DNA of 61,753 bases from Candidatus Omnitrophota bacterium (GTDB lineage Bacteria > Omnitrophota > Gorgyraeia > 2-01-FULL-45-10), in assembly GCA_043798375.1 (NCBI GenBank), contig JAZDOS010000038.1, positions 1 to 61,753 on the forward strand, in the 5' to 3' direction. Shown piece by piece: positions 43,458-59,461 of this stretch (the first letter of the stretch is position 1; each line of letters starts with the position of its first letter). The notes beneath the pieces were generated by a model, which saw only the letters and a list, made by a program, of their open reading frames with translations, was not told the origin of the DNA and did not search any database. Made by a program: the position numbers and the translations under genes.

Positions 43458-43478
43458 CCGGAGAAATCATAAGGATAT

Positions 43479-44720
43479 ATGGATAAAAGAATGGTAATTA
43501 CCGGAATAGGGGTGCTTGCCTCGAACGGCATCGGCAAGGACGAATTCTGGAAGGCCCTTAAAGCGGGCAAGTCCGGGGTGAAGCCTGTCAGCCTGTTCGA
43601 TACCGCTAACCTGAGGAGTAAGCTCGCGGGTGAGATAGCGGATTTCGATCCGGAGGCAATTCTCGGGCTGAAGGGCCTGAGGAATCTGGATAGGTCGACA
43701 AAACTTGCGCTTTCGGCTTCGAAAATGGCGCTTGATGACGCCGGCATCGGGTGTCCTGTAGTCGAGGAAGATACCGATATATTCGGCGTATCTTTAGGTT
43801 CAACGCTGGGGTCGGTCTGGTCCATAAGCGAATTCGATAAGGAAGGCCTGAGAGAGGGGCCGCGATCGGTCAACCCGGCTCTGTTTCCGAACACCGTTAT
43901 TAATTCGCCGGCAAGCCAGATATCGATACGGTTTAACATTCAGGGTTTTAACAGCACTATTTCTACCGGATTCTGTTCCGCTATCGACGCGATCTACTAC
44001 GCGATGAATATGATCAATTTATATGAATATAAAGTTGTTCTGACAGGCGGCGTGGAGGAGCTCTGCGAACAGACATATAAAGGTTTTCACAAGATCGGCC
44101 ACCTTGCCGGCTCCAGGCCGGGTAAAGAGGAAATTAATTGCCCGTTCGATAAAAGAAGGAACGGGATCCTGTTCGGCGAAGGCGCCTCGATCGTCATTTT
44201 AGAGGAACTCGAACACGCTAAAATCAGGAAGGCTCACGTTTATGCAGAGGTGCTGGGTTACGGCACCTCGTTCGACCCGGACAGTAAAAATATTTATAGC
44301 CCCAGGGCCATGGGCGCGGCACAAGCCATGAAGATGTGCCTGGACGATGCGCGCCTGGCGGCAGGCGATATAGGCTACATAAGCGCGACAGCCGATTCTA
44401 CGCTTGACTGCGACGCCATGGAGACCGTGGCTATCAAGAACGTCTTCGGCGATAAGGCGAAGGATATTCCGGCAAGTTCGATAAAGTCGATGGTCGGCGA
44501 GACGTTCTCGGCGTCGGGCGCGATGAATCTGGCAGGTTCGATAGGCGCGTTCGTTTACGATTTTATTCCCCCGACGATTAATTACGAAAAACCGGACAGG
44601 CGCTGCGACCTCGACTACGTCCCGAACGTCGCGCGCGAAGCGAAGGTCGAGAGGATCCTGATAGATTCCTTCAGCCCGACCGGCTCGAATTCGGCATTAG
44701 CGATAGGGCGTTTTGCATGA
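43479..44720 (+). CDS. Ketosynthase-like protein lacking the catalytic triad (chain-length-factor-like)
   Basis: FabF fold, but STGFCS replaces TACAS, SATADST replaces AHGTST and GETFS replaces GHxxG. Confidence 0.8.
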   Translation: MDKRMVITGIGVLASNGIGKDEFWKALKAGKSGVKPVSLFDTANLRSKLAGEIADFDPEAILGLKGLRNLDRSTKLALSASKMALDDAGIGCPVVEEDTDIFGVSLGSTLGSVWSISEFDKEGLREGPRSVNPALFPNTVINSPASQISIRFNIQGFNSTISTGFCSAIDAIYYAMNMINLYEYKVVLTGGVEELCEQTYKGFHKIGHLAGSRPGKEEINCPFDKRRNGILFGEGASIVILEELEHAKIRKAHVYAEVLGYGTSFDPDSKNIYSPRAMGAAQAMKMCLDDARLAAGDIGYISATADSTLDCDAMETVAIKNVFGDKAKDIPASSIKSMVGETFSASGAMNLAGSIGAFVYDFIPPTINYEKPDRRCDLDYVPNVAREAKVERILIDSFSPTGSNSALAIGRFA

Positions 44721-44723
44721 GAA

Positions 44724-44759
44724 AACCTCGGAGGCTGCCTTTAGGCAGCCTCCGAGGTT
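44724..44759. repeat. Palindrome, CAACCT-N3-AGGTTG family variant
   Basis: 17-bp perfect arms AACCTCGGAGGCTGCCT / AGGCAGCCTCCGAGGTT. Confidence 0.8.
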
Positions 44760-44777
44760 GAATGGTGATAGGTTATA

Positions 44778-45512
44778 ATGCTTAAAGACAGGGTTGCGAT
44801 AGTCACAGGCGGTTCCCGCGGGATTGGCAGGGCAATCGTTCTCGAACTCGTAAAGAACGGCGCCAGGGTCGTATTCACGTATCTGAAGAGCGGCGAGGCC
44901 GCCGCGAAACTGTTGGACGAGGTCAAAGAGATGAAAGGCGAGGCCGAAGCCGTCAAGTCCGATTCGCGCGAATACACCCAGGCAAAGGGCGTCATCGATG
45001 AAACGCTTAAGAAATTCGGCCGCCTCGACATCCTTGTCAATAACGCCGGCATCATAAAGGATAAGGCTTTGATGTTCATGGAGCCTTCGGAGTGGCGCGA
45101 TGTCATAGAGACGAACCTTACGGGCTATTTCAATATGGCCAAGGCCTGTATAGTTACGATGATGAAGCAGAAAAGCGGTAATATCATAAATATTTCGTCG
45201 GTGGCCGGTGTCGTGGGAACGCCGCGCCAGGTCAATTACGCGAGCGCCAAGGCCGGCATAGTCGGCCTTACCAAGTCGCTCGCCAAAGAGGTCGCTTCCT
45301 ATAATATAAGGGTGAATGCGGTCGCGCCCGGCTATATCGAAACGGACATGACGAAAGACCTGAAGAATAAAGAAGCGCTGTTGAAGCTGATACCGTCCGG
45401 CAGGCTCGGAAGCCCCGAGGAAGTCGCGAAGGTCGTTTCGTTTTTGGCGGGCGATAAATCGGATTACATAACAGGGCAGGTCATTAAAGTTGACGGCGGA
45501 TTGGCAATTTAA
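44778..45512 (+). CDS. fabG: 3-oxoacyl-ACP reductase
   Basis: TGGSRGIG, NNAG, YASAK, PGYIETDM. Confidence 0.9.
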   Translation: MLKDRVAIVTGGSRGIGRAIVLELVKNGARVVFTYLKSGEAAAKLLDEVKEMKGEAEAVKSDSREYTQAKGVIDETLKKFGRLDILVNNAGIIKDKALMFMEPSEWRDVIETNLTGYFNMAKACIVTMMKQKSGNIINISSVAGVVGTPRQVNYASAKAGIVGLTKSLAKEVASYNIRVNAVAPGYIETDMTKDLKNKEALLKLIPSGRLGSPEEVAKVVSFLAGDKSDYITGQVIKVDGGLAI

Positions 45513-45513
45513 C

Positions 45514-45576
45514 CCTATACAACCTCAAAGGTTGCCTTCACGGTAAGCTGACAGGCAACCTTTGAGGTTGGATAGG
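45514..45576. repeat. Palindrome, CAACCT-N3-AGGTTG family
   Basis: 18-bp perfect arms CAACCTCAAAGGTTGCCT / AGGCAACCTTTGAGGTTG. Confidence 0.82.
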
Positions 45577-45602
45577 TCTCGTAGCGTGAGGAGGTGAGTA
45601 AT

Positions 45603-45851
45603 GTGCCGCAGGTGGACGATTTGATTTTGGAGAAGGAATTAAGGGATATCATCGCCAGGATCGTCGAGATAGATCCGGAGAAGATTACTCTCGAGGCCAA
45701 TTTCGTCGAAGATCTCGGGATGGATTCGATGATGGCGCTTGAGATTTTGGCCGCGATGGAGAAGAAATACAAGATCCAGGTGCCGGAAGAGAAGCTCGGC
45801 AAGTTAAAAAATCTCAAAGAGACGATAAATCTGACGAAGGAATATTTATAA
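45603..45851 (+). CDS. acpP: Acyl carrier protein
   Basis: DLGMDSM phosphopantetheine site; GAGGAGG RBS before GTG 45603. Confidence 0.88.
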   Translation: MPQVDDLILEKELRDIIARIVEIDPEKITLEANFVEDLGMDSMMALEILAAMEKKYKIQVPEEKLGKLKNLKETINLTKEYL

Positions 45852-45855
45852 ATAT

Positions 45856-46278
45856 ATGCTCAACACAGAACAGATAAAAAGTCTCATACCTCAGCGCTTT
45901 CCATTTCTCATGCTTGACAGGGTCACGGATATCAAGGAGGGCGTTTACGTAAAGGCATACAAGAATATCAGTATAGACGAGGACTATTTCCGGGGACATT
46001 TCCCGGACAATCCGGTCTTTCCGGGCGCGCTGATAGCCGAAGGCATGGCTCAGGCGGCCTGTGTCCTGCTGAAAGTAAGCATAAAAGATCTCACCGCGAC
46101 GCAATTTTACGTGACGAACATAAAGATACGGTTATCCAAAGTCGTTGTTCCCGGGGATCGTCTTGAAATATTTGTAAAGACGGTAAAGATGACGCATATC
46201 GGGGGTATCTTCGAGACCGAAGCGTCGGTCGACGGCGCGCAAGTCGCCAAAGGAGAGATGACCTTTGCCTGCAAATAG
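45856..46278 (+). CDS. fabZ: 3-hydroxyacyl-ACP dehydratase
   Basis: PQRFPFLMLD, GHFP..PVFPG...EGMAQ. Confidence 0.9.
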   Translation: MLNTEQIKSLIPQRFPFLMLDRVTDIKEGVYVKAYKNISIDEDYFRGHFPDNPVFPGALIAEGMAQAACVLLKVSIKDLTATQFYVTNIKIRLSKVVVPGDRLEIFVKTVKMTHIGGIFETEASVDGAQVAKGEMTFACK

Positions 46279-47482
46279 GAGAGTCGTCATAACCGGCATA
46301 GGGGCGGTATCGTCCATCGGTATCGGAAAAGATGACTTCTGGAATAATCTTATCGCCGGTAAGTCCGGGATAGGCGAAGTCGAGCGGTTCGGCACTTCGG
46401 AATTTCCGATTCACCGCGCGGGCGAGATAAAAAATTTCAGAGCCGAAGACTTTATGCCGCAGACGATCTGTAAAGCTATCGGCCGCGGTTCACAGCTTGC
46501 CATAGCCGCCGCGAAGCTTGCCCTTGAAGACGGCGATATCAATCTTAAAAAGGATGAGCGCGGGTCTATCGGTATCATTATCGGCACTACGATGGGCGAG
46601 GCGCCGTCCATAGAGATGATAGACAAGTTCTGGACGAGACAGGGCGAAGACGACGTATATCCGTCAAACGTCAGGAACTTTCCGGTGAACAACCTTTCCG
46701 ATAACGTCGCGTTCTTTTTCGGATTGACCAATTATAATTTTGTTATACCGACCGCCTGCGCGGCGGGCAACTACTCGATCGGACTGGCCTTTGACTTAAT
46801 AAGGACCGGCAGGATCGATCTCATGCTTGCCGGCGGAGCCGATCCTTTGTCCAAACTCGCCTTCATGGGATTTAACCGGTTATTCGCGATGGCGCCCGAC
46901 AGATGCCAACCTTTCGATAAGAACCGTAAAGGCATGATGCTCGGTGAAGGCGGCGCGGTTCTTATCGTCGAAGAGATGGCGCACGCCAAAAAGCGCGGCG
47001 CGAAGATTTACGCCGAAGTCTTAGGCTACGGATTGAGCTGTGACGCTTCAAACATGACGATACCAAGCGAAAAAGGTATAGCGAAGGTAATGGAGAAGGC
47101 CATAAAGAACAGCGGCATCAGGAAGGACGACGTTGATTACATATCGGCCCACGGCACGGGCACGGGCTTGAACGACAAAACTGAAACCGCGGCGATCAAG
47201 GATGTGTTCGGCGACAAGGCCAGAGATATCCCAACGAGCTCGATAAAGTCGATGCTCGGCCACACTATGGGCACCGCAAGCGCGTTAGAGGCGATAACTT
47301 GCTGTCTTGCCATGCGCGATAGCGTGATTCCGCCGACCATAAATTACGAAACGCCCGACCCGGAATGCGATATTGACTGCGTCCCGAACAAAGCGCGAAA
47401 GAAAGACGTGTGTATTGCCCTGAACAACTCCTACGCTTTCGGTGGTAACAACGCGTGTGTAGTATTTGGGAAATATAATTAG
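46265..47482 (+). CDS. fabF: Beta-ketoacyl-ACP synthase (active, Cys-His-His)
   Basis: TACAAG, SAHGTGT, KSMLGHT, NSYAFGG. Confidence 0.88.
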   Translation: MPANRRVVITGIGAVSSIGIGKDDFWNNLIAGKSGIGEVERFGTSEFPIHRAGEIKNFRAEDFMPQTICKAIGRGSQLAIAAAKLALEDGDINLKKDERGSIGIIIGTTMGEAPSIEMIDKFWTRQGEDDVYPSNVRNFPVNNLSDNVAFFFGLTNYNFVIPTACAAGNYSIGLAFDLIRTGRIDLMLAGGADPLSKLAFMGFNRLFAMAPDRCQPFDKNRKGMMLGEGGAVLIVEEMAHAKKRGAKIYAEVLGYGLSCDASNMTIPSEKGIAKVMEKAIKNSGIRKDDVDYISAHGTGTGLNDKTETAAIKDVFGDKARDIPTSSIKSMLGHTMGTASALEAITCCLAMRDSVIPPTINYETPDPECDIDCVPNKARKKDVCIALNNSYAFGGNNACVVFGKYN

Positions 47483-47494
47483 AGGAGAGTTGTA

Positions 47495-48370
47495 ATGGAT
47501 CAACAGGTTAAAAAAAATCTCATCGAGTCGTACCAGGTAGACGGCGGCTTTATCGTGTATGATTGCGAAATGTTAAAGAAGATATATAAGGCATACGGCA
47601 TCGACCCGAAAAACTCGACCGATAGAAGGATCTTCGACCTGGAGGGTATAGTCCATTTTTTCCAGAAAGGCGTGGCCGACCTGTTCAAAAGGATCGGCAT
47701 AACGAAAGATGACTATGTCCTGAGCCTCGGCGAGGGAAGCGGCGCCCCTTCGCGGCTATTGGTGAAACTGACCGGCTGCAGGGTTGTCGGGGTGGATGTG
47801 AATCCGGCCCAGGTCAAGAAGGCCAGAGAAATTGCCGTCCTGCACGGAGTCCAGGATAAGGTCAAATATTACGAGCAGAACGTGGAAGAGTTCGATCTCG
47901 ACAAAAAAGATTTTACGAAAGCGTATGTCAACGAGACGTGCGGCCACTGGCAGGATAAGAGGAAGGCCTTCAACCGGATAAACAAGCATCTTGCTAAAGG
48001 CGCCAGGATAGGCTTCAATATATGGCTCGCGGGCGATAAGGGCACGCTGAACGAAGCTTACGACGCCGTCCCGGAATTCCGCCCTCTCTATAAACCGGGG
48101 ATATGGTTCCAGGAGGACCTGGGCGCTTACAAGAAACTGCTCGAGGAAGCGGGTTTCAACATATTGGAGATGGAAGACTGCACGGATGAAGTAGATATCA
48201 GGATACGGGCGAAACTGAAGAGCGGCAAAAGCGAATGGGATACCTACGCCTCCGTGATGGGCCGGAAGGCCGTCGATATCGGGTATGATTACTATAAGGG
48301 GATAGCGCTATCCCATTACGGCTACCTGAAATACGGCGTAGTCATAGCGGAGAAGAAAACGAGCCGTTAA
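47495..48370 (+). CDS. Class I SAM-dependent methyltransferase
   Basis: VLSLGEGSG motif I, VVGVD motif II. Confidence 0.75.
   Translation: MDQQVKKNLIESYQVDGGFIVYDCEMLKKIYKAYGIDPKNSTDRRIFDLEGIVHFFQKGVADLFKRIGITKDDYVLSLGEGSGAPSRLLVKLTGCRVVGVDVNPAQVKKAREIAVLHGVQDKVKYYEQNVEEFDLDKKDFTKAYVNETCGHWQDKRKAFNRINKHLAKGARIGFNIWLAGDKGTLNEAYDAVPEFRPLYKPGIWFQEDLGAYKKLLEEAGFNILEMEDCTDEVDIRIRAKLKSGKSEWDTYASVMGRKAVDIGYDYYKGIALSHYGYLKYGVVIAEKKTSR
48325..48357. repeat. 33-bp direct repeat, copy 1 (MTase 3' end)
   Basis: 32/33 identical to 49607-49639. Confidence 0.9.
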
Positions 48371-48375
48371 TGCCC

Positions 48376-48431
48376 TTGACTATTTTACTAAAATAGAGTA
48401 TACTCCATTTTAGTAATACTAAAATGGAGTA
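48376..48431 (+). promoter_or_regulatory. sigma70 promoter with three alternating 15-bp operator-like repeats
   Basis: TTGACT-N17-TATACT; TACTAAAATAGAGTA, TACTCCATTTTAGTA, TACTAAAATGGAGTA. Confidence 0.75.
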
Positions 48432-48439
48432 ACAAGCCC

Positions 48440-49603
48440 ATGAAAAATATCAAACGGATTTTGAAGATGGAATTGCCGCGGGGGCAATCGGCCTTTTTGT
48501 GGGGAGCCCGCAAGACCGGCAAGACGACGTACCTTAAAGAAAGGTTTCCTGATGGCTTGGTGTATGATTTTCTAAAGACAGATTTATACCTGAATATGGT
48601 CAAGAACCCTTCGCTTTTACGCCAGCAAATACTCGCGAAGGACAATACGGCATTGAAGGAACCTATTATATTGGATGAGGTGCAAAAGGTTCCTCATGTA
48701 CTGGATGAGGTGCATTGGCTGATAGAAAACAGAAAGTTAAGGTTCGTGCTTTGCGGATCGAGCGCCAGAAAACTGAAAAGGGGCCACGCCAATCTTTTGG
48801 GCGGCAGGGCCTGGCGATACGAGATGTTCCCTCTTGTCAGCCGGGAGGTCGGAAAGCTCGATATATTGCGCGCCCTGAATCACGGAATGATACCGGCGCA
48901 TTATTTGCAGGATGAGAAAGAATGCAAGAAATCCCTGGGGGCGTACGTGCAGGATTACCTGCGGGAGGAAGTATTTGCCGAAGGATTGACGCGGAATATC
49001 CCGGCGTTTTCGCGATTCTTTGACGCTTTTGGATATTCTCACGGCGAATTGACCAATTATAATAATATCGCCGGCGAATGCGGCGTCGATTCCAAAACGG
49101 TCAAAGAATACTATCAGATTCTCGTGGATACTTTGCTGGCCATCAGGCTCGAGCCTTTTAAAAAAAGACAATCACGGGATGTGATCATAAAGGCCGCGAA
49201 ATATTATATGTTCGATGTAGGTGTCGCCGGGTATTTGACAAAGAGGCATCTGACGGAACAACGGGGCGCGGAATTCGGCAGGGCATTCGAACATTTTATA
49301 CTGATGGAAGTAGCGGCGTATAGATCTTACAGCGAAAAAGATTTTACCATAAATTTTTGGAGGACGAAATCCGGGCTTGAAGTAGATTTTGTGCTTGGCG
49401 CCGGCGAGGTTTGCTTAGAGGTGAAAGGTGGGAAGCGGCTTGGTAAAAGGGATATGAACGGGATAAGCGTTTTTACCGAAACATATTCACCGAAGAGAAG
49501 CATCATAGTTTGCGGCGAACCGGAGAAGAGGCTCGCCGGGAAAGTGGAGATATTGCCCTGGGAGCAATTTCTGGACGATCTCTGGGATGGCCGTATATTA
49601 TAA
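48440..49603 (+). CDS. AAA+ ATPase (AAA_14 + DUF4143-like)
   Basis: GARKTGKT, DEVQK, GSS, LLGGRA, FWRT..GLEVDF, EVK. Confidence 0.85.
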   Translation: MKNIKRILKMELPRGQSAFLWGARKTGKTTYLKERFPDGLVYDFLKTDLYLNMVKNPSLLRQQILAKDNTALKEPIILDEVQKVPHVLDEVHWLIENRKLRFVLCGSSARKLKRGHANLLGGRAWRYEMFPLVSREVGKLDILRALNHGMIPAHYLQDEKECKKSLGAYVQDYLREEVFAEGLTRNIPAFSRFFDAFGYSHGELTNYNNIAGECGVDSKTVKEYYQILVDTLLAIRLEPFKKRQSRDVIIKAAKYYMFDVGVAGYLTKRHLTEQRGAEFGRAFEHFILMEVAAYRSYSEKDFTINFWRTKSGLEVDFVLGAGEVCLEVKGGKRLGKRDMNGISVFTETYSPKRSIIVCGEPEKRLAGKVEILPWEQFLDDLWDGRIL

Positions 49604-49606
49604 TCG

Positions 49607-49639
49607 CCTGAAATACGGCGTCGTCATAGCGGAGAAGAA
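49607..49639. repeat. 33-bp direct repeat, copy 2
   Basis: 32/33 identical to 48325-48357. Confidence 0.9.
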
Positions 49640-49651
49640 GAGGGAAGCATA

Positions 49652-50950
49652 ATGGCTAAGAGGGTTGTGATAACAGGGTTAGGGCCTATATCATCTGTGG
49701 GGATTGGGTGCGGTGCGATGTGGGATTCGATTTTGAACAAACGCCTTAATCTTGTTAAAAAGACTTATTCGGTCGATAACGAAAAATGGGGAGAGTTTTA
49801 TCTGCATAAAATCAAAAATTTTAATATTAAGGATTTTAACCTTCCAAAAGAAAATTTTAGATTTATCAGCGAAACAAGGACTGTAAAGAAAGAAGACACG
49901 GATCTTTACTACTTTTTAGCGGTAATAAAATTGGCCATCGATGACAGCGGGCTCAAATATGACTACGAACGGAATGACATCGGTTTGATTTTGACTCAAG
50001 AAAATCCGGGCATTGAGATCTTTTTTGAAGAGTTGATGGATTCCGCATATGAGATATTTAATCGCCTGAAAGAGAAGAAGGTATCCAAGTTAAAATTGGC
50101 GCAGGAAATCTATCGATCCGGCGCCGAAGAGAGAGGCTACAATCTGCAAACGTTCTCGTATCTTTTCTCAACCGCCAAAGTTTTTGACCTGCATGGATAT
50201 TCGCTATTTATAAATAACGCGTGCGCGTCGGGCCTATTTGCCATCGAGGCCGCGGCGCAGCAGATACGCGCGGGCACTTCGCCTGCCGTAGTAGTAGCCG
50301 CTTGCGATGATCCTACGAGGATATATAAATATTTGTGGTTTAAAAGGAACAAGCTATATGCCGAAGATGGCATCACCAGGCCGTTTTCGACCGATTCAAA
50401 CGGCATTGTTTTCGGTGATGGGGGAGCCGCCCTGGTTTTAGAGGATCTGGAATATGCCAGAAAAAGAAAAGCGCGCATATACGCCGAATATCTTGGGGGC
50501 GGTTTTTCTTTAGAAGGCTGGAAGGTAACAGTACCGAATATCGCCGATGATTTTTATACGAGATCATTCAAAAAAGCCCTCAATAATTCAAAGATAAAGC
50601 CTGACGAGATTGACCTCGTGAATCCGCATGGTGTTGGGATGAAAATTACGGATACATATGAAGCGAACACGATCAACAATATTTTTAAGGACAGGAAACC
50701 GTCAATCAGCGCTTTTAAGCCGTTGGTAGGCCACAATTTGGGCGGAAGCGCTCTGCTTGAAACTGCCATTTCACTGCTGGCTTTGAAAAATAATGTCATC
50801 CCGGCTACATTAAACTGCGAGAACCAGAACACAAAACTTAACCTTAATATTGTCAAAGAAAATAAGAAAACAAAGCTCGATACCGTTGCCAAAATGTCGT
50901 GCGGTTTTTCCGGGTTTAACGGTGTTTGTATTTTTAGAAAATATAGCTAA
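49652..50950 (+). CDS. Divergent beta-ketoacyl synthase
   Basis: NACASG, NPHGVG, KPLVGHNLG retained; divergent N-terminal half. Confidence 0.82.
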   Translation: MAKRVVITGLGPISSVGIGCGAMWDSILNKRLNLVKKTYSVDNEKWGEFYLHKIKNFNIKDFNLPKENFRFISETRTVKKEDTDLYYFLAVIKLAIDDSGLKYDYERNDIGLILTQENPGIEIFFEELMDSAYEIFNRLKEKKVSKLKLAQEIYRSGAEERGYNLQTFSYLFSTAKVFDLHGYSLFINNACASGLFAIEAAAQQIRAGTSPAVVVAACDDPTRIYKYLWFKRNKLYAEDGITRPFSTDSNGIVFGDGGAALVLEDLEYARKRKARIYAEYLGGGFSLEGWKVTVPNIADDFYTRSFKKALNNSKIKPDEIDLVNPHGVGMKITDTYEANTINNIFKDRKPSISAFKPLVGHNLGGSALLETAISLLALKNNVIPATLNCENQNTKLNLNIVKENKKTKLDTVAKMSCGFSGFNGVCIFRKYS

Positions 50951-50977
50951 CCTTTTCTATGTCTATTTCAAGGATAT

Positions 50978-52286: not shown

Positions 52287-54430
52287 ATTTTTATGTATTA
52301 TCCAGCTTTATAGCGAGTATATCTCTGTTAGCAATGGGCATGTTTATGTTCATAAATAGTAAATCTCGAATACATATAAGGATATGGGGTTATGCTTGTT
52401 TCAGCGTATTGTTCTGGCAGGTAGGTAGTTTTGGATTTTCTACAGCAACGTCTAAAGAAATGGCATTCTACTGGTGGCAGTTTGCGCATATAGGAACAAT
52501 GCTTGCGCCACCCATATTTTTCCACTTCGTCTGTCTTTATCTCGGGATCAGAAAAAAATGGCTACAAGTTTCTGCATATATCATTTCAATCCTTTTTATA
52601 ATGATAAATTTTTATTGGGGCAGATATTTTATAGGAGATTTACGACTTACATCCGATCATTTCTATTATATAGACTGGTTTCATTATCGTAATCCCCTTT
52701 TTATTCTTTATTATTTAATGGCTTATGTCCTGCTACTGGGGTATTCCTTTATTATATTGGTGAAAAATTTTATGCTTTCTCATGGTATTCGACGTAAACA
52801 ATACAAATATTTTATTATAGGATCGATTGTTGGTTGGAGTGGTCCAATAGGAATAATAATTTCTTATTTCAGGATCGATTTATATGCTTATACTAATTTT
52901 CTCATGGGGATATTCCCACTTATAATGGGTTACGCCATTATTCGTCATCAATTGATGGATATTGAAGTAATTATAAAGAAGACACTTGTTTTTGCCGGAC
53001 TTTTAGCTTCAGTTTTTGCGATATTGATTCTACCTACATTACTCATCCAGGAATATATATTAAGGGCTGCAAATTTTGGCGGTAGAATGATAGGCCTTAC
53101 AATTAGCGGTATCATAATAATTTTGACCATGCGCCGGATCGAGACGTTCCTCATAAACATCACCGACAAATACCTCTTCCAGAAGAAATACGATTATAAG
53201 GAATTACTGAAGACTTTTACGTCAGAAGTTCTTACGGTATTAGAGCTGGATAAACTCATGGATCTTACTATTAGCAAACTTACTGATATCGTTAAGCTGA
53301 ATTCCTGTGCCGTGCTGCTCTTCGACGACGAGAAACAACAGTTTGAAGTTATGGCGTCTCATAACATAAAAGATCCGTCAATAACGTTGATACGGCCGGA
53401 CGGGATCGTTACGTTCATGGACGAGACGCACGGTTATATACTCGTAAAAGAGATGCGCGATAAGAAGATATCGATACCGGCATCCATACAAGAAATAATA
53501 GATAAGCTTAACGCCGAGCTTATCATCCCCATGGTCATGCACGACGAAGTCATCGGAGTCCTGTCGCTCGGCAAGAAGAAATCGGACGAGGAATATACAC
53601 AGGATGATCTCGACATACTCTTACCGCTGGCCAAGACGCTCGCGATAGCGATATCGAACGCCCAGCTTTTCGTCGAGCTCGGGAAGACACAGGCGGAGGC
53701 GGCGCAGAACGAAAAAATGGCGGTTATCGGGACGCTTTCGGCCGGCATTAATCACGAGATCTGTAACCCCCTCGGCATCGCGCGCGGCCAATGCGAGGCG
53801 TTTCTCCTGAATATCAAAGATGGCCTGTATAAGCATAAGACTACAGAGGAACTTTTTGCCAAGGCAAAAGAGATTATGGCGAAAGTCATACATGAAACGG
53901 ACAGGGCGACGTCCATCACGAAGAAGCTTTCCGGATTTGCCAAACCCGCGAAGGGCGAATCGGAAAGTGTCAATGTAGACAAGGAAATCGAGGATGTGAT
54001 CGGCCTGGTGGGTTATGAATTGAAACTCGAGAAGATAGAATTTACCAAAGATATCGAGAAGGATCTGCCGAATATCTTCGTCGATAAGAAGCAGTTTCAG
54101 GAGGTCCTTTTCAACTTAATCAGGAACGCCGGGCAGGCGATCGGAGAGAGGGGCAAGATTGCGATCACGGCAAAACAGGATAGAAATAAGGTATTCATAG
54201 ATATCAAGGATAGCGGCTCGGGCATACCTGAAGACAAGATAAAACAGCTCTTTAATCCGTTCTTTACGACTAAGGACCCGGGAAAGGGAACGGGCCTGGG
54301 GCTCTTCATTGTCCGCCAGGTCGTCGAAAAGAACGGCGGCAGGATACATCTCAAAGAGACAAAGGTCGGCGAGGGAACGACGTTCACGCTCGAATTCCCA
54401 GCAGTGATCGAGGAAGCAAAGACAAAATAA
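52283..54430 (+). CDS. Membrane sensor histidine kinase (multi-TM N-terminus, GAF, HisKA, HATPase)
   Basis: About 7-9 TM helices; GAF-like region; HEICNPL, NLIRNA, DSGSGI, FFTTK, GTGLGL. Confidence 0.92.
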   Translation: MNFYVLSSFIASISLLAMGMFMFINSKSRIHIRIWGYACFSVLFWQVGSFGFSTATSKEMAFYWWQFAHIGTMLAPPIFFHFVCLYLGIRKKWLQVSAYIISILFIMINFYWGRYFIGDLRLTSDHFYYIDWFHYRNPLFILYYLMAYVLLLGYSFIILVKNFMLSHGIRRKQYKYFIIGSIVGWSGPIGIIISYFRIDLYAYTNFLMGIFPLIMGYAIIRHQLMDIEVIIKKTLVFAGLLASVFAILILPTLLIQEYILRAANFGGRMIGLTISGIIIILTMRRIETFLINITDKYLFQKKYDYKELLKTFTSEVLTVLELDKLMDLTISKLTDIVKLNSCAVLLFDDEKQQFEVMASHNIKDPSITLIRPDGIVTFMDETHGYILVKEMRDKKISIPASIQEIIDKLNAELIIPMVMHDEVIGVLSLGKKKSDEEYTQDDLDILLPLAKTLAIAISNAQLFVELGKTQAEAAQNEKMAVIGTLSAGINHEICNPLGIARGQCEAFLLNIKDGLYKHKTTEELFAKAKEIMAKVIHETDRATSITKKLSGFAKPAKGESESVNVDKEIEDVIGLVGYELKLEKIEFTKDIEKDLPNIFVDKKQFQEVLFNLIRNAGQAIGERGKIAITAKQDRNKVFIDIKDSGSGIPEDKIKQLFNPFFTTKDPGKGTGLGLFIVRQVVEKNGGRIHLKETKVGEGTTFTLEFPAVIEEAKTK
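54350..54424. repeat. 75-bp imperfect direct repeat, copy 1 (kinase 3' end)
   Basis: Matches 55880-55954 with mostly third-position differences. Confidence 0.88.
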
Positions 54431-54450
54431 CAATTAAAGATGTATAGTAT

Positions 54451-55941
54451 ATGGTAAAAGATAAATACGATGTTATTATCATAGGTGCCGGAATATCAGG
54501 ACTTATAGCAGGTACGCACCTTGCAAAAAACGGACTTAAAGTTCTTATCGTCGACAAGAATAATATTGCCGGCGGTTGTTATACATCTTTCAGACGGAAT
54601 GGTTTCATGTTTGATGCCGGTGCGCAAGTTATTGGCAGCAGCGGCAGATCAAATGTGCTTGGTTCAATTTTGAATTCACTGGAAGTCGACATTGATTTTG
54701 TGAAATTAAAAGTTACCGATTTAGTACACTTCCCGAAAGAGACGATGCCGGTCGATGGTGATTCCGAAAAATTCAAAACATACTTAAAAGAAAGGTTCAA
54801 AACCGAGAAAGATAATATCGAAAGGTTTTTCAAGATATTCTCCGAAGCAGATGGCAGTTTAAAAATATTATACGTGATGAGGAAATACGCGGATTTTACC
54901 TATCAACAGGTGTTGGACGGCTTCTTTAAAAATGATATTCTTAAAAGTATTTTTTCCTCCCAAGCGGGATACTTAGGGCTTCCGCCGAAAAAGGTCTCGG
55001 CTGTTTCAGCAATATTATTGTTAAAAACTTATATTATTGATGGCGCGTATTATCCGATGGGCAGTTCTCAGGCACTGAGCGATGCCATTGTCGGCACATT
55101 TAAGAAATTTGGCGGAACTTTATTATTGAATTCAGAAGTAAAAAAAATATTAATAAGGACTAATACCGCTAAAGGGATATTATTGGATGATATGGAGTTT
55201 TTGTCCGATTTTATAATTATAGCATCGGATATCAAGCGTGCGTATACAAAATTACTAGAACCAAACCAAATAAGAATTAACAGAGAGTTTTATACAAAAC
55301 TAAATAGATTTAAACTGGGAGATTCAGGCTGTATTTTATATCTTGGCATATCAAAGAACGTTAATTTAGAGAATATGAATGGGTGGTATTATTCGTCATA
55401 CGACATAAACAGGGCATTTAAAACATTTATGAATGTGCATACTCCGACACAATATGATAAGTCGCTTTCGAAAAGTGGCGATAATATTCTTATAGCAACA
55501 TTTCCTTTTTGTTATGCGGAGGACAGAAAAACAGAGCGAAAAGAATTCAAAATCAACCTCATGAAAAAATTATTGTCTAGGTTGGAAGAGCGCATACCGG
55601 AGATTAAGGGAAATATTATTATGAAAGAACTTGCAACGCCTTTAACGATCGAAAGGTATACTTTTAATTCAGGCGGGTCTCTTTATGGATGGGCTCAATT
55701 ACCTAATCAGACTCATAAGAACTGCTTCCCAATTGGTTCACCAGTGAAAGGGCTGTTTCACGCAGGGCATTGGACTTTGCCCGGTGGTGGCATCGTAGCT
55801 GTGGCAACATCAGGGATCAATGCGGCTAAGAGAATTTTAAAAAAGATTGAAATGAGTAGAAAAACTTTTATCACCGTACCTCAAAGAGACGAAGGTCGGC
55901 GAGGGGACGACGTTTACGCTCGAATTCCCCGCAGCGACTGA
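54451..55941 (+). CDS. FAD-dependent oxidoreductase, phytoene desaturase-like
   Basis: IIGAGISG, GG, FDAG, TPLTIERYT...GSLYG, GLFHAGHW..PGGG. Confidence 0.82.
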   Translation: MVKDKYDVIIIGAGISGLIAGTHLAKNGLKVLIVDKNNIAGGCYTSFRRNGFMFDAGAQVIGSSGRSNVLGSILNSLEVDIDFVKLKVTDLVHFPKETMPVDGDSEKFKTYLKERFKTEKDNIERFFKIFSEADGSLKILYVMRKYADFTYQQVLDGFFKNDILKSIFSSQAGYLGLPPKKVSAVSAILLLKTYIIDGAYYPMGSSQALSDAIVGTFKKFGGTLLLNSEVKKILIRTNTAKGILLDDMEFLSDFIIIASDIKRAYTKLLEPNQIRINREFYTKLNRFKLGDSGCILYLGISKNVNLENMNGWYYSSYDINRAFKTFMNVHTPTQYDKSLSKSGDNILIATFPFCYAEDRKTERKEFKINLMKKLLSRLEERIPEIKGNIIMKELATPLTIERYTFNSGGSLYGWAQLPNQTHKNCFPIGSPVKGLFHAGHWTLPGGGIVAVATSGINAAKRILKKIEMSRKTFITVPQRDEGRRGDDVYARIPRSD

Positions 55942-55972
55942 AGAAGCGAAGACAGAAGTAAAGGGTAAATAA
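55880..55972 (+). pseudogene. Orphan histidine kinase C-terminal fragment (copy 2 of the repeat)
   Basis: Reads LKETKVGEGTTFTLEFPAATEEAKTEVKGK-stop, versus kinase LKETKVGEGTTFTLEFPAVIEEAKTK-stop. Confidence 0.8.
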
Positions 55973-55987
55973 GGTTTCGCTATGCCT

Positions 55988-56038
55988 GTAATTTATCCTG
56001 ATAAATTACTTGACAAAAGCAAATTGTCATGGTAGATT
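55988..56038 (+). promoter_or_regulatory. Putative promoter with adjacent palindromes
   Basis: GTAATTTATC-CT-GATAAATTAC dyad; TTGACA-N17-TAGATT. Confidence 0.55.
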
Positions 56039-56047
56039 TATAATATC

Positions 56048-57187
56048 ATGAAGATATTGAAAAGATTATTGAAAATCGATCTTCCAAAAGGCAAGTCCGC
56101 CTTTCTCTGGGGCCCGAGAAAGGCGGGAAAGACCTATTGGATCAGGCATCATTTGAAAGACGCCTTAATTATAGATCTTCTAAAGACCGATGTGTTCGCC
56201 GAATATGCCGCCAGGCCCTCTCTTTTAAGGGAACGGCACGGAGACGAAAAAAGGCTGATAGTGATAGATGAGGTTCAAAAAATACCCATTCTGCTTGACG
56301 AAGTGCATTGGCTTATCGAGAATAAGGGGCTTTCTTTTCTGCTCACCGGTTCAAGCGCGAGAAAGTTGAGGCGGGGACACGCGAATTTACTTGGAGGAAG
56401 GGCGTGGCGTAAGATTATGACCCCGCTATCCATGCTCGAAGTCGATTCGATCGACTTGGAAAGAATTATGTATTCCGGCCTTTTGCCGCCTCATTACCTA
56501 TCCCAGGATCCAACCGAGGATCTTCGCGCCTATGTGTCGGATTATTTGAAAGAAGAGATTTCGGCGGAAGCGCTTGTCGGGAACATTCCGGCGTTTTCGG
56601 AGTTTTTAAGAGTAGCCGCCATAACCTCAAGCGAGCTCATTAATTATGTTAATATAGCGAGGGAGACGGGCGTATCTCATAGGGTTGTCCGGAATTATTT
56701 TGACATATTGGAAGATACCTATTTGGGGTTCCGGATACCGCCATGGCGTAAATCAAAGACCAGGCGTATGATACTTACGGAGAAGTTCTATCTTTTCGAT
56801 GTAGGAGTGGCCAATTATCTGGCGCGGCGGCGCCCCATGATAGGAAGCGCCGAATTCGGAAAATCTTTTGAGCATTATATCCTGATGGAACTGCGGTCCT
56901 ACCAGGTTTATAAAGATCCGGACATTCCTATATCTTTTTGGAGGACAAGCGCGGGGCAGGAAGTGGACTTTATATTAGGCGACATGGAGACGGCCGTCGA
57001 AATAAAAGGCTCCAGCCGGGTCCATAACGGCAATCTCCGGTCCCTTATGGCGTTAAAAGAGGACGGGCCGGTCAAGCATATGATAGTGGTTTCTCTCGAA
57101 AGAGAGCCGAGAAAGATCGCGCCCAACGTCGAGATTCTGCCATGGCGGATCTTTATCGAGAGATTGTGGAATGGAGATTATTGCTAA
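56048..57187 (+). CDS. AAA+ ATPase (AAA_14 + DUF4143-like), paralog of 48440-49603
   Basis: GPRKAGKT, DEVQK, LDEVHWLIEN, GSSARKL, GHANLLGGRAWR shared with the first copy. Confidence 0.85.
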   Translation: MKILKRLLKIDLPKGKSAFLWGPRKAGKTYWIRHHLKDALIIDLLKTDVFAEYAARPSLLRERHGDEKRLIVIDEVQKIPILLDEVHWLIENKGLSFLLTGSSARKLRRGHANLLGGRAWRKIMTPLSMLEVDSIDLERIMYSGLLPPHYLSQDPTEDLRAYVSDYLKEEISAEALVGNIPAFSEFLRVAAITSSELINYVNIARETGVSHRVVRNYFDILEDTYLGFRIPPWRKSKTRRMILTEKFYLFDVGVANYLARRRPMIGSAEFGKSFEHYILMELRSYQVYKDPDIPISFWRTSAGQEVDFILGDMETAVEIKGSSRVHNGNLRSLMALKEDGPVKHMIVVSLEREPRKIAPNVEILPWRIFIERLWNGDYC

Positions 57188-57188
57188 A

Positions 57189-57560
57189 ATGAAAAAACCA
57201 CGGATAGTAGCGATCGATGACGAGGTGGACTTTATTACGATGCTCGAGGATTACTTCAAGCCGAGGGGATACGATATCGATGTGGCGATACGCGGCGCGA
57301 AGGGCATCGAGATCGTGAAAGAGAAGAAGCCGGATGTGGTTTTGATTGACCTGAAGATGCCCGGCATTGACGGCGACGAGGCCCTGAAACTGATAAAGTC
57401 GATGGATCCGTCGCCCCAGGTCATTTTTGTAACGGCGTATGACGACGGCGGGAAGACCAAAGCGCGGCTTTTGAAGATGGGCGCGTACGCCTATTTCGAT
57501 AAGCCGATCGCGTCATTAAAGGAGCTGGAAGAAACTATTAACAAAGCGGCAAGCCGGTAA
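57189..57560 (+). CDS. Single-domain response regulator
   Basis: DDE, DLKMP, TAY, KP. Confidence 0.9.
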   Translation: MKKPRIVAIDDEVDFITMLEDYFKPRGYDIDVAIRGAKGIEIVKEKKPDVVLIDLKMPGIDGDEALKLIKSMDPSPQVIFVTAYDDGGKTKARLLKMGAYAYFDKPIASLKELEETINKAASR

Positions 57561-57572
57561 CCGAAAAGGGGT

Positions 57573-57938
57573 ATGGGTATGCGTAAGTTGTTAGTAGTGG
57601 ACGATGAGAAGGAAATCTGCGATTTCATGAAGAACTTTTTTCAGGAACGCGGATACGAAGTCTTCATTTCTCTGAGCGGCGAGGACGCGCTGGAGGCCAT
57701 CAAGAAGGACAAGCCCGATCTCGTATTACTCGACATTAAAATGAAGGGCATGGACGGGATTGCCGCGTTGAAGCATATCAAGGATATGGACAAGAAGATA
57801 AAAGTCGTTATGGTCACCGCGCTCGAGGATCAGGAGAAGATGAACGAGGCATGCAAACTCGGAGCGTGCGAATATATCACAAAACCGCTTATGCTCGACC
57901 ATCTGGAAGAAGCCGTCGAGAAGAACTTTAAAATCTAA
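57573..57938 (+). CDS. Single-domain response regulator
   Basis: VDDE, DIKM, TA, KP. Confidence 0.9.
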   Translation: MGMRKLLVVDDEKEICDFMKNFFQERGYEVFISLSGEDALEAIKKDKPDLVLLDIKMKGMDGIAALKHIKDMDKKIKVVMVTALEDQEKMNEACKLGACEYITKPLMLDHLEEAVEKNFKI

Positions 57939-57950
57939 AGGAGATGATTA

Positions 57951-59336
57951 ATGGCAAAGAACAAAAAGGCGCCGAGCTGGGATAAGCTCCACAATCTTTT
58001 CGTCGAGAAATCGATAGACCGGAGCGGCAATCTCGTGCCGCTCGATGCCGGCAAGAACGCCGTCGACGGCGCCCAGAGGGGCGCCGCAAACAACGCAGTG
58101 CCCAAATACGACTATCAGGCGTTTCTCGAGCAGGCGTCGCGCACGATGATAAGGTTCAAGAAGCCGGAGCACCTTATCAAGATGATAGTGCGCACTATCG
58201 ACGAGCAGCTTCACGTTACCCACACGGCGGTCCTGTTATTCAAGGAAAACAAGCACTCATATATATTGATCGATTCAAAAGGCACCGAAGGCGTCAAGAT
58301 ACCGATAGGATTCATAAAATTGGCGGTGGAAAATCCGCTCATCAAAGTATTCAGCGATAAGGAGAGCTATCTTATTTCGGAGACCGGCATATTAAGGTAT
58401 GAGGATATTATAAACGGCCTGAGGAACAGGGAAGTCCTCGAGAAACAACCCAACCTATACGACAAATTGCTCCTGATAAAGAGGCAGATGGACCTTATTA
58501 AGGCGAATCTATGCGTGCCGTGTTACTTCAAGCGGGAACTTCTCGGCATTCTGGTCCTGGGTGATAAGATTTCGGGAGAGAGCTTCAGCCGCGAGGAGAT
58601 GGGATTTTTTGTTACGCTGGCCAATGACGCCGCTATGGCGATCGCGAATACGCTGTTGATCGAGAACCTGCAGACCAAGATCGAGGAGATCAAAGAGCTG
58701 TATGTGCGCGAGCATAGGATTTTCATCCACACGGCAATAGCGATGGCCGCCGCGATAGACGCGCGCGACCCTTACACGCACGGCCATACGGAGCGCGTGA
58801 CGAATTACTGCATCGCCGTCGCGAAGGAGCTCGATGGCATTCCCGAAATGGCGAATTATAAGAATTTCCGCGAGACCCTGCAGATCGCGGCGCTCCTGCA
58901 CGACATAGGTAAGATCGGCGTCCCCGACCATATATTGAACAAGCACGCCTCGCTCGCCCCGGAGGAATACGAAGAGATAAAGAAGCATTCGATAATAGGC
59001 GCGACGATCCTGCATCCGATCAAGGAACTGAGCGACGTGGCGCGAGAGGTCCGCCACCACCAGGAATGCTACGACGGCTCGGGCTATCCGGACGGGCTGA
59101 AGGCCAACGACATCCCGCTCATCGCCCGGATCATCTCCGTTTGCGACGCCTTCGACGCCATCACGACGAACCGGCCGTATAAGAAGAAGAAGACGATTGA
59201 AGAGGCGATCGCGGAGCTCAAGCGCTGTTCCGGGTCGCAATTCGATCCGGTTGTGGTGAGCGCGTTCCTCCTGGCGTTCGAAAAGGGCAACATCCTTCCG
59301 AACAAGGATAATCCAGGCAGTTACAAGAACTGGTAA
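57951..59336 (+). CDS. GAF + HD-GYP phosphodiesterase
   Basis: YTHGHTERV, LHDIGK, HQECYDGSGYPDGL, RPY, GSQFDP. Confidence 0.9.
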   Translation: MAKNKKAPSWDKLHNLFVEKSIDRSGNLVPLDAGKNAVDGAQRGAANNAVPKYDYQAFLEQASRTMIRFKKPEHLIKMIVRTIDEQLHVTHTAVLLFKENKHSYILIDSKGTEGVKIPIGFIKLAVENPLIKVFSDKESYLISETGILRYEDIINGLRNREVLEKQPNLYDKLLLIKRQMDLIKANLCVPCYFKRELLGILVLGDKISGESFSREEMGFFVTLANDAAMAIANTLLIENLQTKIEEIKELYVREHRIFIHTAIAMAAAIDARDPYTHGHTERVTNYCIAVAKELDGIPEMANYKNFRETLQIAALLHDIGKIGVPDHILNKHASLAPEEYEEIKKHSIIGATILHPIKELSDVAREVRHHQECYDGSGYPDGLKANDIPLIARIISVCDAFDAITTNRPYKKKKTIEEAIAELKRCSGSQFDPVVVSAFLLAFEKGNILPNKDNPGSYKNW

Positions 59337-59461
59337 TGATTGCGGAAATTTCCAACTATATCTAACTTTTTTATAATCTTACCTAGTTTCATAATTCCTT
59401 TAATTACAATAAGTTACAATCCTTATATATTAAATTTTAAGAGACTAAAAACCAAGACCCC

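Follow-up and report, generated by a model that had tools for sequence, protein, structure and literature searches.

Does the membrane histidine kinase encoded beside a putative lipid synthase detect what that synthase makes? The question is posed by a locus at positions 43479-59336 of a contig (C4) from a Candidatus Omnitrophota bacterium, whose genome amounts to 1.46 Mb in 58 contigs and is 95% complete; the whole 61,753-nt stretch that was analysed is referred to here as the window. Sixteen closely spaced genes lie in the locus, all on the + strand, as are the promoter-like site before KS1 and the kinase-tail remnant named below. They encode an acyl carrier protein (ACP) with ketosynthases (KS) and partner enzymes, a set of tailoring enzymes, a histidine kinase with a seven-transmembrane (7TM) sensor, two receivers, and an HD-GYP protein predicted to hydrolyse cyclic di-GMP (c-di-GMP). 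An earlier note on this DNA had seen in it a quorum-sensing-like system, in which an ACP-derived small molecule is sensed by the kinase and relayed to cyclic dinucleotide turnover. All the genes that it named were recovered at their places, as open reading frames (ORFs) with Pfam or NCBIfam matches.

We propose that the locus is an operon in two halves, in which the product of a specialised acyl-ACP synthase would be bound by the cognate 7TM kinase and relayed to c-di-GMP hydrolysis, and we put the probability of this reading at about 0.5. Judged by gene order across related genomes, the functional coupling of synthase, sensor kinase and HD-GYP is well supported, through linkage that is both conserved and repeated. 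An independent and unexpected line, which speaks in favour of ligand-specific sensing, is the co-variation of the sensor with its adjacent enzymes in what appears to be an exchangeable cassette.

The layout of the genes bears on the first point. Intergenic gaps range from -17 to 106 nt, with four overlaps, and this tight spacing is informative and operon-like. Shared orientation, to which the note had also pointed, is real but uninformative: every long ORF that is not nested in a longer + strand ORF lies on the + strand throughout the 61.7 kb window, so we rejected co-orientation as operon evidence. The overlap by which the flavoprotein gene Flav2 runs into the kinase start was confirmed as ATGA (...ggaaaATGAattt at 52283-52286).

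Linkage of synthase and signalling genes in relatives

The linkage was followed from both sides. On the kinase side there were two samples, namely 16 loci ranging from the same genus up to the same class, and 80 public loci, in which downstream genes were counted where at least 3 kb, and upstream genes where at least 7 kb, was available. On the synthase side there were 41 related genomes, in which a gene was taken as KS1-type, after the first ketosynthase of the window, at 52% identity or more; ordinary FabFs reach 40% at most.

The order KS1-FabG-ACP-(FabZ)-KS2-...-kinase-receiver-receiver-GAF-HD-GYP is present in 12 of the first 16 loci, the other four being without a KS cluster (two) or cut by contig ends (two). 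Receiver 1 comes next after the kinase in 58 of 60 public loci, and the full receiver-receiver-GAF-HD-GYP set is found in 52 of the 60. Upstream, a KS2-type gene lies within 7 kb in 20 of 46 kinase loci, and farther off, behind inserted genes, in two more (L033 and L038), which brings the count to 22/46. Seen from the synthase, there are 22 KS1-type loci in 21 of the 41 genomes: in 16 a 7TM-GAF kinase gene follows farther down the same strand, five are interrupted by contig breaks, and one (G030) is unlinked, being a KS1-FabG-FabZ remnant among housekeeping genes with no kinase. Counted among the 16 linked loci are two distant paralogous systems (kinase identity only 28-33%), and the linkage persists in class-level relatives with different flanks. 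Conserved synteny, which the earlier note had named as a check, thus came out favourably; apart from the remnant, unlinking of the two halves in relatives was not seen. Such coupling of a synthase to a kinase is not described in the accessible parts of the literature on Omnitrophota polyketides or quorum sensing, on HisKA_7TM, or on ladderanes together with histidine kinases.

Kinase loci that lack the KS cluster also have lipid or redox neighbours, such as acyl reductases, a GMC oxidoreductase or an aldehyde dehydrogenase, and elsewhere a fatty-acyl-AMP ligase with FadL, START-like proteins or a type I polyketide synthase (PKS). The last is a protein of 2596 residues (KS-AT-KR-DH; L098:1956-9746) encoded directly upstream of its kinase. 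A deeper clade (L094, L085) shows the order kinase-REC-kinase-REC interleaved between two FabG-ACP-KS sets, with a GAF-HD-GYP gene after the second receiver in L094. Tandem arrays of two to five extra 7TM kinases, some of them short and without GAF, stand beside the system in three further loci (L029:14346-19993, L018:14365-18424 and L047:17708-22106).

A hypervariable sensor on a conserved kinase core

The kinase ORF (52283-54430) encodes HisKA_7TM, GAF, DHp and HATPase_c domains, the DHp being matched through NCBIfam kinase models. Residues 1-216 (52283-52930; GC content 0.31-0.37) form the sensor, which matches Pfam PF16927 with 59.5 bits against a cut-off of 28.6, over profile positions 4-222 of 224. 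Residues 217-715 (52931-54430) hold two further transmembrane helices, with hydropathy peaks at residues 237-255 and 263-281, followed by the GAF, DHp and HATPase parts. It is the one HisKA_7TM kinase in the whole genome. Membership of the PrsK family (TIGR02916) was rejected, with 160 bits against a cut-off of 300 over residues 277-706 only. Those parts of the literature naming the HisKA_7TM domain that were accessible give no ligand for it.

The two parts of this protein differ sharply in conservation. When 16 orthologues are aligned, residues 1-215 share almost nothing; conservation begins at Y217, and about half of the ~500 core positions are invariant or nearly so. Compared with two genomes of the same genus, the sensor (1-215) is 29% and 23% identical and the core (216-715) 84-89%, and the sensors of these two genomes fail to align with each other at the required coverage of 60%; three genomes of one genus carry three different sensor types. 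The boundary is equally sharp in DNA. Against the same-genus genome G001, no homology is detectable from 50926 to 52930, a stretch that takes in Flav1, Flav2 and the sensor, whereas identity is 82-90% on either side. The kinase core in G001 is 89% identical in protein and 82% in DNA, and the flanking genes are 90-96% identical.

Sensor and core are decoupled across the wider sample as well. The window sensor is 17-33% identical to nearly all orthologues, with the exceptions of L048 (74%), L123 (67%) and L124 (65%), and clustering of 46 complete sensors at 45% identity yields 37 groups. Among the 1035 pairs the median sensor identity is 24-27% in every band of core identity. Sensor identity does not exceed 43% in any of the 86 pairs with cores 75-85% identical, and it reaches 57-63% in some pairs with cores only 51-56% identical. 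All 20 relatives' sensors that were tested nevertheless pass the Pfam HisKA_7TM cut-off over the full length. Within a type, sensor and core are conserved alike (74.5/73.0, 64.7/64.2 and 59.4/56.3% identity). Because within-type conservation equals that of the core, the sensor is constrained rather than drifting, and we rejected the idea that the 7TM part is a freely drifting membrane anchor.

A tree of the conserved kinase part places the window as sister to G001. Approximately unbiased (AU) tests on these C-terminal data, from a quick LG+G4 search with the conserved kinase part only, reject four of five groupings by sensor type (p = 0.008, 9e-7, 4e-6 and 7e-45) and do not reject the fifth (p = 0.09). 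Sensor types are, to judge from these trees, shuffled between lineages.

Sensor types and the adjacent enzymes

Directly upstream of the kinase lie Flav1 (50978-51568), a flavoprotein of the FMN_red family (Pfam PF03358), and Flav2 (51561-52286), a flavodoxin-fold protein resembling azoreductases and quinone reductases, with weak matches to Pfam Flavodoxin_2 and FMN_red. Only one locus of the genome collection, L048, has the window's sensor type (74%), and it is also the only one with a similar Flav1 (62%) and Flav2 (61%); in its other genes the divergence is that of the genome as a whole, at about 70% identity. (The metagenomic locus L122 repeats the L048 identity values gene for gene and probably stems from the same population.) Other sensor types accompany a GMC oxidoreductase, a 498-residue protein of no known family, a shikimate-dehydrogenase-like protein or an acyl reductase. 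Among 35 loci, pairs that share the family of the immediate upstream gene have the higher sensor identity (median 32 versus 24.5%, Mann-Whitney p = 8e-5, for pairs that are not independent of one another), and their core identity is not higher (p = 0.36).

A metagenome scan with the Flav2 alignment returned 80 loci, and these extend the association. Where a Flav2 at least 46% identical to that of the window precedes the kinase, the sensor is 65-74% identical (L048/L122, L123, L124); where the Flav2 is only 29-36% identical, the sensor is 22-25% identical (L037, L128, L130, L173). L123 is the most telling of these. Its Flav1-Flav2-7TM cassette sits on a kinase core with just 35% identity, which is lowest in the GAF and catalytic parts, and its kinase is followed by receivers with no HD-GYP. 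From these comparisons, 7TM types appear to move between lineages as a cassette with the directly upstream enzyme gene or genes, which are Flav1 and Flav2 here.

The acyl-ACP synthase

The upstream half of the locus begins with KS1 (43479-44720), a FabF-fold protein with both Pfam ketoacyl-synt domains (N and C), and continues with a FabG-type 3-oxoacyl-ACP reductase (44778-45512; TIGR01830, 301 bits against a cut-off of 297.75), a dedicated ACP (45594-45851; Pfam PP-binding), a FabZ-type 3-hydroxyacyl-ACP dehydratase (45856-46278; NF000582, 138.7 bits against 113) and KS2 (46265-47482). FabZ is missing from five of the 12 KS clusters of relatives. Alignment with the housekeeping FabF shows that KS1 has lost the catalytic triad, the Cys being replaced by Phe and the two His by Thr and Glu, and that KS2, like the further ketosynthase KS3, retains Cys-His-His. 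KS1 is presumed to be a catalytically dead partner of the active KS2, resembling a chain-length factor (CLF), and a heterodimer is predicted.

The closest solved structures support this pairing. KS1 is closest to 9s5h_C (380 bits, 1.3e-112) and KS2 to 9s5h_B (508 bits, 1.6e-151), i.e. to two chains of one heteromeric entry, with canonical FabFs far behind in both cases; chain C of 9s5h itself carries Val/Asn/Glu at the triad positions. The top solved matches of the ACP are 7auf_A, 9s5i_E and 7qv0_D (E = 1e-16 to 3e-15), ahead by a small margin of canonical ACPs (5.6e-13 and weaker). The second of these is an ACP chain included in entry 9s5i, and 7QV0 is the Scalindua amxFabZ-amxACP complex (PMC10139942).

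Anammox bacteria offer the nearest parallel. According to the accessible text of a preprint (10.64898/2026.05.19.726425), anammox amxFabF2 and amxFabFmut form a KS/CLF-like heterodimer, of which an acyl-ACP complex was crystallised, and in the FabF pair the Cys is changed to Val/Thr and the His to Glu/Cys/Asn. We infer that 9s5h and 9s5i are the anammox structures of that preprint, from the active-site residues of the one and the ACP chain of the other; the accessible preprint text gives no PDB codes. Cluster I (KustE3603-3608), as set out in the accessible part of the preprint and in a further paper, consists of amxACP, amxFabZ, amxFabFmut, amxFabF2, a phytoene-dehydrogenase homologue and a B12 radical SAM enzyme (10.64898/2026.05.19.726425; PMC10139942). 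Since KS1, KS2 and, by the small margin given, ACP appear nearest to anammox proteins, the window holds a Cluster-I-like core. Clusters called 'ladderane' by antiSMASH are on record for Omnitrophota and for further phyla outside the anammox bacteria; the accessible part of the paper concerned gives their function as unknown (PMC9902471).

This cluster is not the only acyl-ACP system in the genome. A canonical acpP-fabF pair is present on contig C39, its FabF scoring 649.8 bits, above the curated cut-off; we therefore rejected sole housekeeping fatty-acid synthesis as the role of the window synthase and take it to be specialised and additional to the canonical pair. An enoyl reductase was not among the proteins identified in the locus.

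A 24-nt-arm palindrome (45514-45576) lies between FabG and ACP. It looks like a repetitive extragenic palindromic (REP) element, given that at least four further full or partial copies occur on other contigs.

Tailoring enzymes

The remaining biosynthetic genes make up a set that changes from genome to genome. A methyltransferase dependent on S-adenosylmethionine (SAM) follows KS2 (47495-48370; Pfam Methyltransf_23/25/11), and KS3 (49652-50950), a divergent FabF-like ketosynthase with an intact triad by profile matches and alignment, precedes the two flavoproteins. Only some relatives have a KS3, with identities of 44-72%. The third flavoprotein, of the CrtI/phytoene-desaturase family (54451-55941), matches Pfam Amino_oxidase and scores 137.9 bits with TIGR02734, below the cut-off of 238.1; its closest solved relative is the gamma-carotene desaturase 4rep, and it is only 23-41% identical to the CrtI-like proteins of relatives.

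Flav1 and Flav2 show no detectable similarity to each other. By sequence Flav2 has no solved relative, and a word-seeded search of a collection of 5.8 billion proteins found only ten relatives. Its predicted model (pLDDT 81) has FMN-dependent NAD(P)H azoreductases, WrbA and SsuE as top Foldseek matches, at TM-scores of 0.45-0.54.

In relatives the slot between KS2 and kinase is filled by other enzymes, among them nitroreductases, a fusion of a LuxD-like acyltransferase with a methyltransferase, and fusions of flavodoxin with ferredoxin. Their loci also contain, in other places, a B12 radical SAM enzyme, acyl reductases and a fatty-acyl-AMP ligase.

Receivers, HD-GYP protein and the c-di-GMP network

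As the earlier note had it, two receivers and a GAF-HD-GYP protein close the locus, and all three have intact catalytic motifs. Receiver 1 (57171-57560; Pfam Response_reg) and receiver 2 (57573-57938) are stand-alone REC proteins that both keep the acidic pocket, the acceptor Asp, the Thr and the Lys. In receiver 1 the pocket is a DD pair and the acceptor lies in VLIDLKMPG; in receiver 2, also assigned by Pfam, D10, D11, D54 and K104 are invariant in 46 sequences. The predicted phosphodiesterase (57951-59336; Pfam HD_5, HD and GAF) matches PF13487 with 136.3 bits against a cut-off of 27.2. It has the HD-GYP motifs LLHDIGK and HHQECYDGSGYPDG, and H317, D318, G378, Y379 and P380 are invariant in 44 sequences.

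The genome encodes six GGDEF, six HD-GYP and 11 PilZ genes, a dense c-di-GMP set for 1.46 Mb; six of the PilZ matches lie close together at 83-95 kb of contig C49. One relative (L104:908-2197) encodes a PilZ domain and a CMAS-like SAM methyltransferase as a single protein, whose gene immediately precedes those for an acyl reductase and the kinase. This fusion, found in L104 only among all the fetched loci in which it was sought, could be a c-di-GMP receptor on a lipid-modifying enzyme.

The note had further suggested that the system possibly controls a large surface protein encoded downstream. This part found no support. The ORF in question (59837-61675) is complete, with 612 residues, an N-terminal hydrophobic segment, its own promoter-like site and no Pfam match, and nothing was found to tie it to the locus, from which it is separated by a 500-nt gap with no c-di-GMP riboswitch in Rfam.

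Insertions, rearrangements and flanking elements

Two of the 16 genes, which interrupt the locus and go unmentioned in the earlier note, are not part of the system. ATPase 1 (48440-49603) and ATPase 2 (56048-57187) belong to the AAA_14/DUF4143 family by Pfam and are 49% identical to each other, among seven family members in the genome. Direct repeats of 33 nt, 97% identical (48325-48357 and 49607-49639), enclose ATPase 1 and derive from the methyltransferase 3' end, so that this end was rebuilt by the insertion; a hairpin is also carried by the insertion (48325-49651). The second repeat copy reads in frame to a TAA that overlaps the ATG of KS3, and we conclude from this that methyltransferase and KS3 were once translationally coupled. 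Promoter-like sites precede both ATPase genes (48376-48404 and 56010-56038). Relatives lack ATPase 1 at this position; in L025 a copy with 80% identity lies upstream of KS1 instead. Such genes behave like mobile cassettes, and we rejected the two ATPases as parts of the system in view of the flanking duplication of ATPase 1, their own promoter-like sites, their absence from relatives and the seven genomic copies.

The CrtI-like gene appears to have arrived in a similar manner. That a tailoring oxidoreductase follows the kinase, as the note had said, is true here, but it is specific to this genome, since full-length CrtI-like genes of relatives precede the kinase. In the window a direct repeat of the kinase 3' end stands on each side of the gene (78 nt, 87% identical; 54350-55971), and its position after the kinase is accordingly an insertion. 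The second repeat is a remnant of about 30 codons plus stop (55880-55971), whose translation is 88% identical to kinase residues 689-714, i.e. a dead kinase tail; a promoter-like site and ATPase 2 follow, the latter being inserted between kinase and receiver 1. Such a pattern is what one would expect if a circle with a homologous kinase end had integrated by a single crossover.

In most relatives the kinase stands directly beside receiver 1. Small inserted modules recur on either side of the receiver pair, at its junction with the kinase or with the HD-GYP gene. They comprise AbiEii with HTH and ParE with DUF6290, both of the toxin-antitoxin kind, a DUF2204 nucleotidyltransferase, or '23S rRNA intervening sequence' proteins (L016:3751-5015, L022:7075-7588, L020:8913-9993, L027:6229-6594 and L030:12930-13289).

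Upstream of KS1, the best promoter-like site of the region (43085-43112; TTGACA-16-TATACT, 11/12, a consensus match only) lies 366 nt 5' of the gene. In the distant relative L048, identity over the 48 nt around it (43066-43113) is 85%, against only ~69% for coding DNA. The 366-nt leader from there to KS1 (43113-43478) contains a hairpin with a 15-bp stem followed by a T run (43372-43404). An Rfam scan of 42800-61753 at E <= 1 gave one chance-level match to a small RNA, and the leader holds no known element; terminator-like sites are not enriched (23 observed against 20.8 expected).

A low-GC island (39251-43036; 0.38-0.44) with restriction-modification genes and an SGNH/GDSL hydrolase is inserted between a HAMP-domain gene and KS1, which are neighbours in many relatives. 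Its proteins include a Tsp45I-type restriction enzyme and a 580-residue fusion of LexA DNA-binding, S24 peptidase and N6/N4 DNA methylase domains, which looks unusual as a control element for restriction-modification.

Proposed mechanism and alternative explanations

We propose the following course of events. KS2/KS1, ACP, the ketoreductase and the dehydratase would make a hydrophobic, acyl-derived molecule, which the changeable redox and methyl tailoring set (methyltransferase, KS3, the two FMN-type flavoproteins and the CrtI-like flavoprotein) would modify. The HisKA_7TM domain of the co-translated kinase might then bind this molecule, or the form of it made by the adjacent enzymes, upon which the kinase would phosphorylate the two stand-alone receivers. 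These in turn may act on the GAF-HD-GYP protein and so alter c-di-GMP hydrolysis. The discrete sensor types would be ligand-specificity groups.

Several observations weigh against this proposal. A KS1/KS2-type cluster is missing from 24 of the 46 kinase loci for which 7 kb or more of upstream DNA is available, and the kinase-receiver-HD-GYP module can therefore do without the synthase; in the same-order genomes L018 and L028 there is no KS cluster at the locus, and the KS1 query found none elsewhere in them. By Pfam scan no thioesterase, acyltransferase or exporter is encoded in the locus, which leaves product release unexplained. The conserved cytoplasmic GAF domain, not the 7TM part, might be the ligand site. 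Other points concern the co-variation. The locus pairs behind the upstream-family test are, as said, not independent. Co-phylogeny of the sensor with KS3 and the tailoring genes, another check named in the earlier note, was borne out in part: the 7TM type co-varies with the immediate upstream gene or genes, Flav1 and Flav2, but not with KS3 or the CrtI-like gene, the sharing of which does not predict sensor type (in G001, KS3 is 72% identical and the sensor 29%). Flav1 and Flav2 stand side by side in most of the 80 metagenome loci (L122-L201), usually with no kinase nearby, and being so widespread without one, the pair is a two-gene flavoprotein module with a function of its own. Finally, co-variation could be mechanical, the DNA between conserved flanks being replaced together, in which case it is no proof of a ligand. 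The best argument that the association of sensor and enzyme is more than such hitch-hiking is the L123 cassette, which sits on another core.

Among the alternatives, membrane-lipid homeostasis survives best, although we consider it unlikely. Here the synthase would make a structural lipid; the kinase would gauge the amount of this lipid, or some bulk property of the membrane, and adapt surface or envelope behaviour by tuning c-di-GMP, with no exchange between cells. The nearest characterised cluster to KS1/KS2/ACP is, according to the accessible preprint text, thought to make membrane (ladderane) lipids (10.64898/2026.05.19.726425), and this explanation would also sit well with the lack of a release enzyme in the window locus. 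Some relatives point the same way: KS-less kinase loci have a CDP-alcohol phosphatidyltransferase and PgpA 2-4 kb upstream, a PlsC-type acyltransferase lies ~1.2 kb upstream of the kinase in L018, and the PilZ-CMAS-like fusion of L104 would close a loop from c-di-GMP onto lipid modification. A sensor of bulk properties, however, is not expected in at least 37 discrete, internally conserved types, nor with three types in three genomes of one genus, nor with a type that moves together with one adjacent enzyme onto a different kinase core, as in L123.

It is still less probable, in our view, that the co-variation reflects a protein interface, with Flav1/Flav2 docking on the 7TM domain and the kinase reading their redox or substrate state. 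Such a co-sensor would fit the translational coupling of Flav2 to the kinase through the ATGA overlap, the restriction of co-variation to the immediate neighbours of the sensor (and not KS3 or the CrtI-like protein), the recurrence of the Flav1-Flav2-7TM unit on a different kinase core, and the modelled fold of Flav2, which resembles FMN-dependent NAD(P)H quinone and azo reductases. Yet the partner folds, which range from flavodoxin-like through GMC oxidoreductase, acyl reductase and shikimate-dehydrogenase-like to the 498-residue protein, seem too varied to dock on one 7TM fold, and most metagenomic Flav1-Flav2 pairs have no kinase beside them.

We think it equally improbable that synthase and signalling module are functionally uncoupled neighbours by descent with a hot spot of recombination and insertion between them, since, for all that the upstream PDZ and HAMP genes are syntenic in many relatives too (so that gene order is generally conserved), that toxin-antitoxin modules, ATPase genes and the restriction-modification island are inserted in different genomes, and that half of the kinase loci lack the KS cluster, the linkage recurs in class-level relatives with differing flanks and in two paralogous systems (kinases 28-33% identical), the Flav1-Flav2-7TM unit is kept together on another core, and the sensor is within each type as conserved as the catalytic core, which makes its variability a replacement among maintained alleles and not decay.

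Having set out the alternatives, we return to sensing of the synthase product by the 7TM kinase, which can be carried further in two steps. That the molecule is shared in true cell-to-cell signalling is a tentative suggestion, and we hold it to be rather doubtful. A bolder picture is that of dozens of lipid pherotypes, in which KS/CLF enzymes and redox tailoring would yield strain-specific autoinducers, read by matching 7TM cassettes, passed on to c-di-GMP and traded horizontally across the phylum; this we regard as speculative and, on balance, doubtful too.

If true, it would be the first non-peptide signalling system with specificity groups like those of Agr and Com, and it would give a function to 'ladderane-like' clusters outside anammox bacteria. 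No role had been proposed for these clusters in non-anammox phyla, and the conserved, translationally coupled sensor kinase offers a testable one, with many natural variants of the enzyme set available for study. Exchange of the sensor in one cassette with the enzyme next to it is, in addition, a natural experiment toward the ligands of HisKA_7TM kinases. Omnitrophota are uncultured nanobacteria with small genomes, and signalling of many types combined with a dense c-di-GMP network would, if real, bear on how they recognise kin or partners.

Comparison with known systems

The diffusible signal factor (DSF)/Rpf system of Xanthomonas, to which the earlier note had likened the locus, consists of a crotonase-type synthase (RpfF), a hybrid kinase with REC and HPt domains (RpfC) and a REC-HD-GYP protein (RpfG). 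The analogy stands as logic, since here too an ACP-linked fatty-acyl molecule would act through a multi-transmembrane histidine kinase on an HD-GYP c-di-GMP phosphodiesterase. It does not extend to the proteins. The synthase is a KS/CLF system with its own ACP, and Pfam finds nothing like the crotonase/ECH domain of RpfF, at E <= 1e-3, in any of the 16 proteins of the locus; the kinase is HisKA_7TM-GAF-HATPase_c and, unlike the hybrid RpfC, has neither REC nor HPt; and the HD-GYP protein carries an N-terminal GAF, not the REC of RpfG, the two REC proteins being separate genes. Hypervariable sensor types are not a known feature of Rpf systems.

Such types are familiar from the pherotype loci ComQXPA of Bacillus and AgrBDCA of Staphylococcus, which use ribosomal peptide pheromones and have a DNA-binding regulator as output. 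The present system resembles them in that a hypervariable membrane sensor sits on a conserved kinase core, with types discordant with the core phylogeny, and in that the variable block takes in adjacent genes, which there make or modify the signal and here encode lipid and redox enzymes. The adjacent enzyme does co-vary with the sensor, but the comparison is confounded by physical linkage, and a signal-making role of these enzymes is putative. It differs from those loci in the lipid and redox enzymes that adjoin the sensor (a peptide precursor was neither looked for nor seen) and in its predicted output, which is c-di-GMP turnover.

Aryl-polyene (APE) systems (ApeO/ApeC) and other highly reducing type II PKSs share the combination of KS/CLF with a FabG-like reductase and a FabZ-like dehydratase, without an enoyl reductase, and KS2 has the ishigamide ketosynthase 6kxd (351.5 bits) among its best solved matches. 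APE clusters typically also have genes for an aryl starter, acyl or glycosyl transferase and MMPL export, unlike the locus, in which none of these was seen. Moreover, ApeC is a half-size chain-length factor (PMC8358021), whereas KS1 is full length, with 413 residues and both ketoacyl-synt domains.

The closest likeness in enzymes is to anammox Cluster I. Both pair a dead-triad FabF with an active one and both have a FabZ; the ACP appears closest to anammox ACPs, by the small margin given above and with only 7QV0 confirmed as an amxACP from its paper; and a CrtI-family flavoprotein (54451-55941) is present, a match at family level, the relatives' copy lying between KS2 and kinase. Unlike Cluster I, the locus proteins have no Radical_SAM or B12-binding match, although a B12 radical SAM gene adjoins the kinase in L028. 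FabG, methyltransferase, KS3 and flavoproteins are added here, the whole is joined to a two-component/HD-GYP module, and the host belongs to Omnitrophota, not to the anammox Planctomycetota. We conclude that the system falls outside the DSF/Rpf family; it is Rpf-like in its logic, pherotype-like in its population structure and anammox Cluster I-like in its enzymes.

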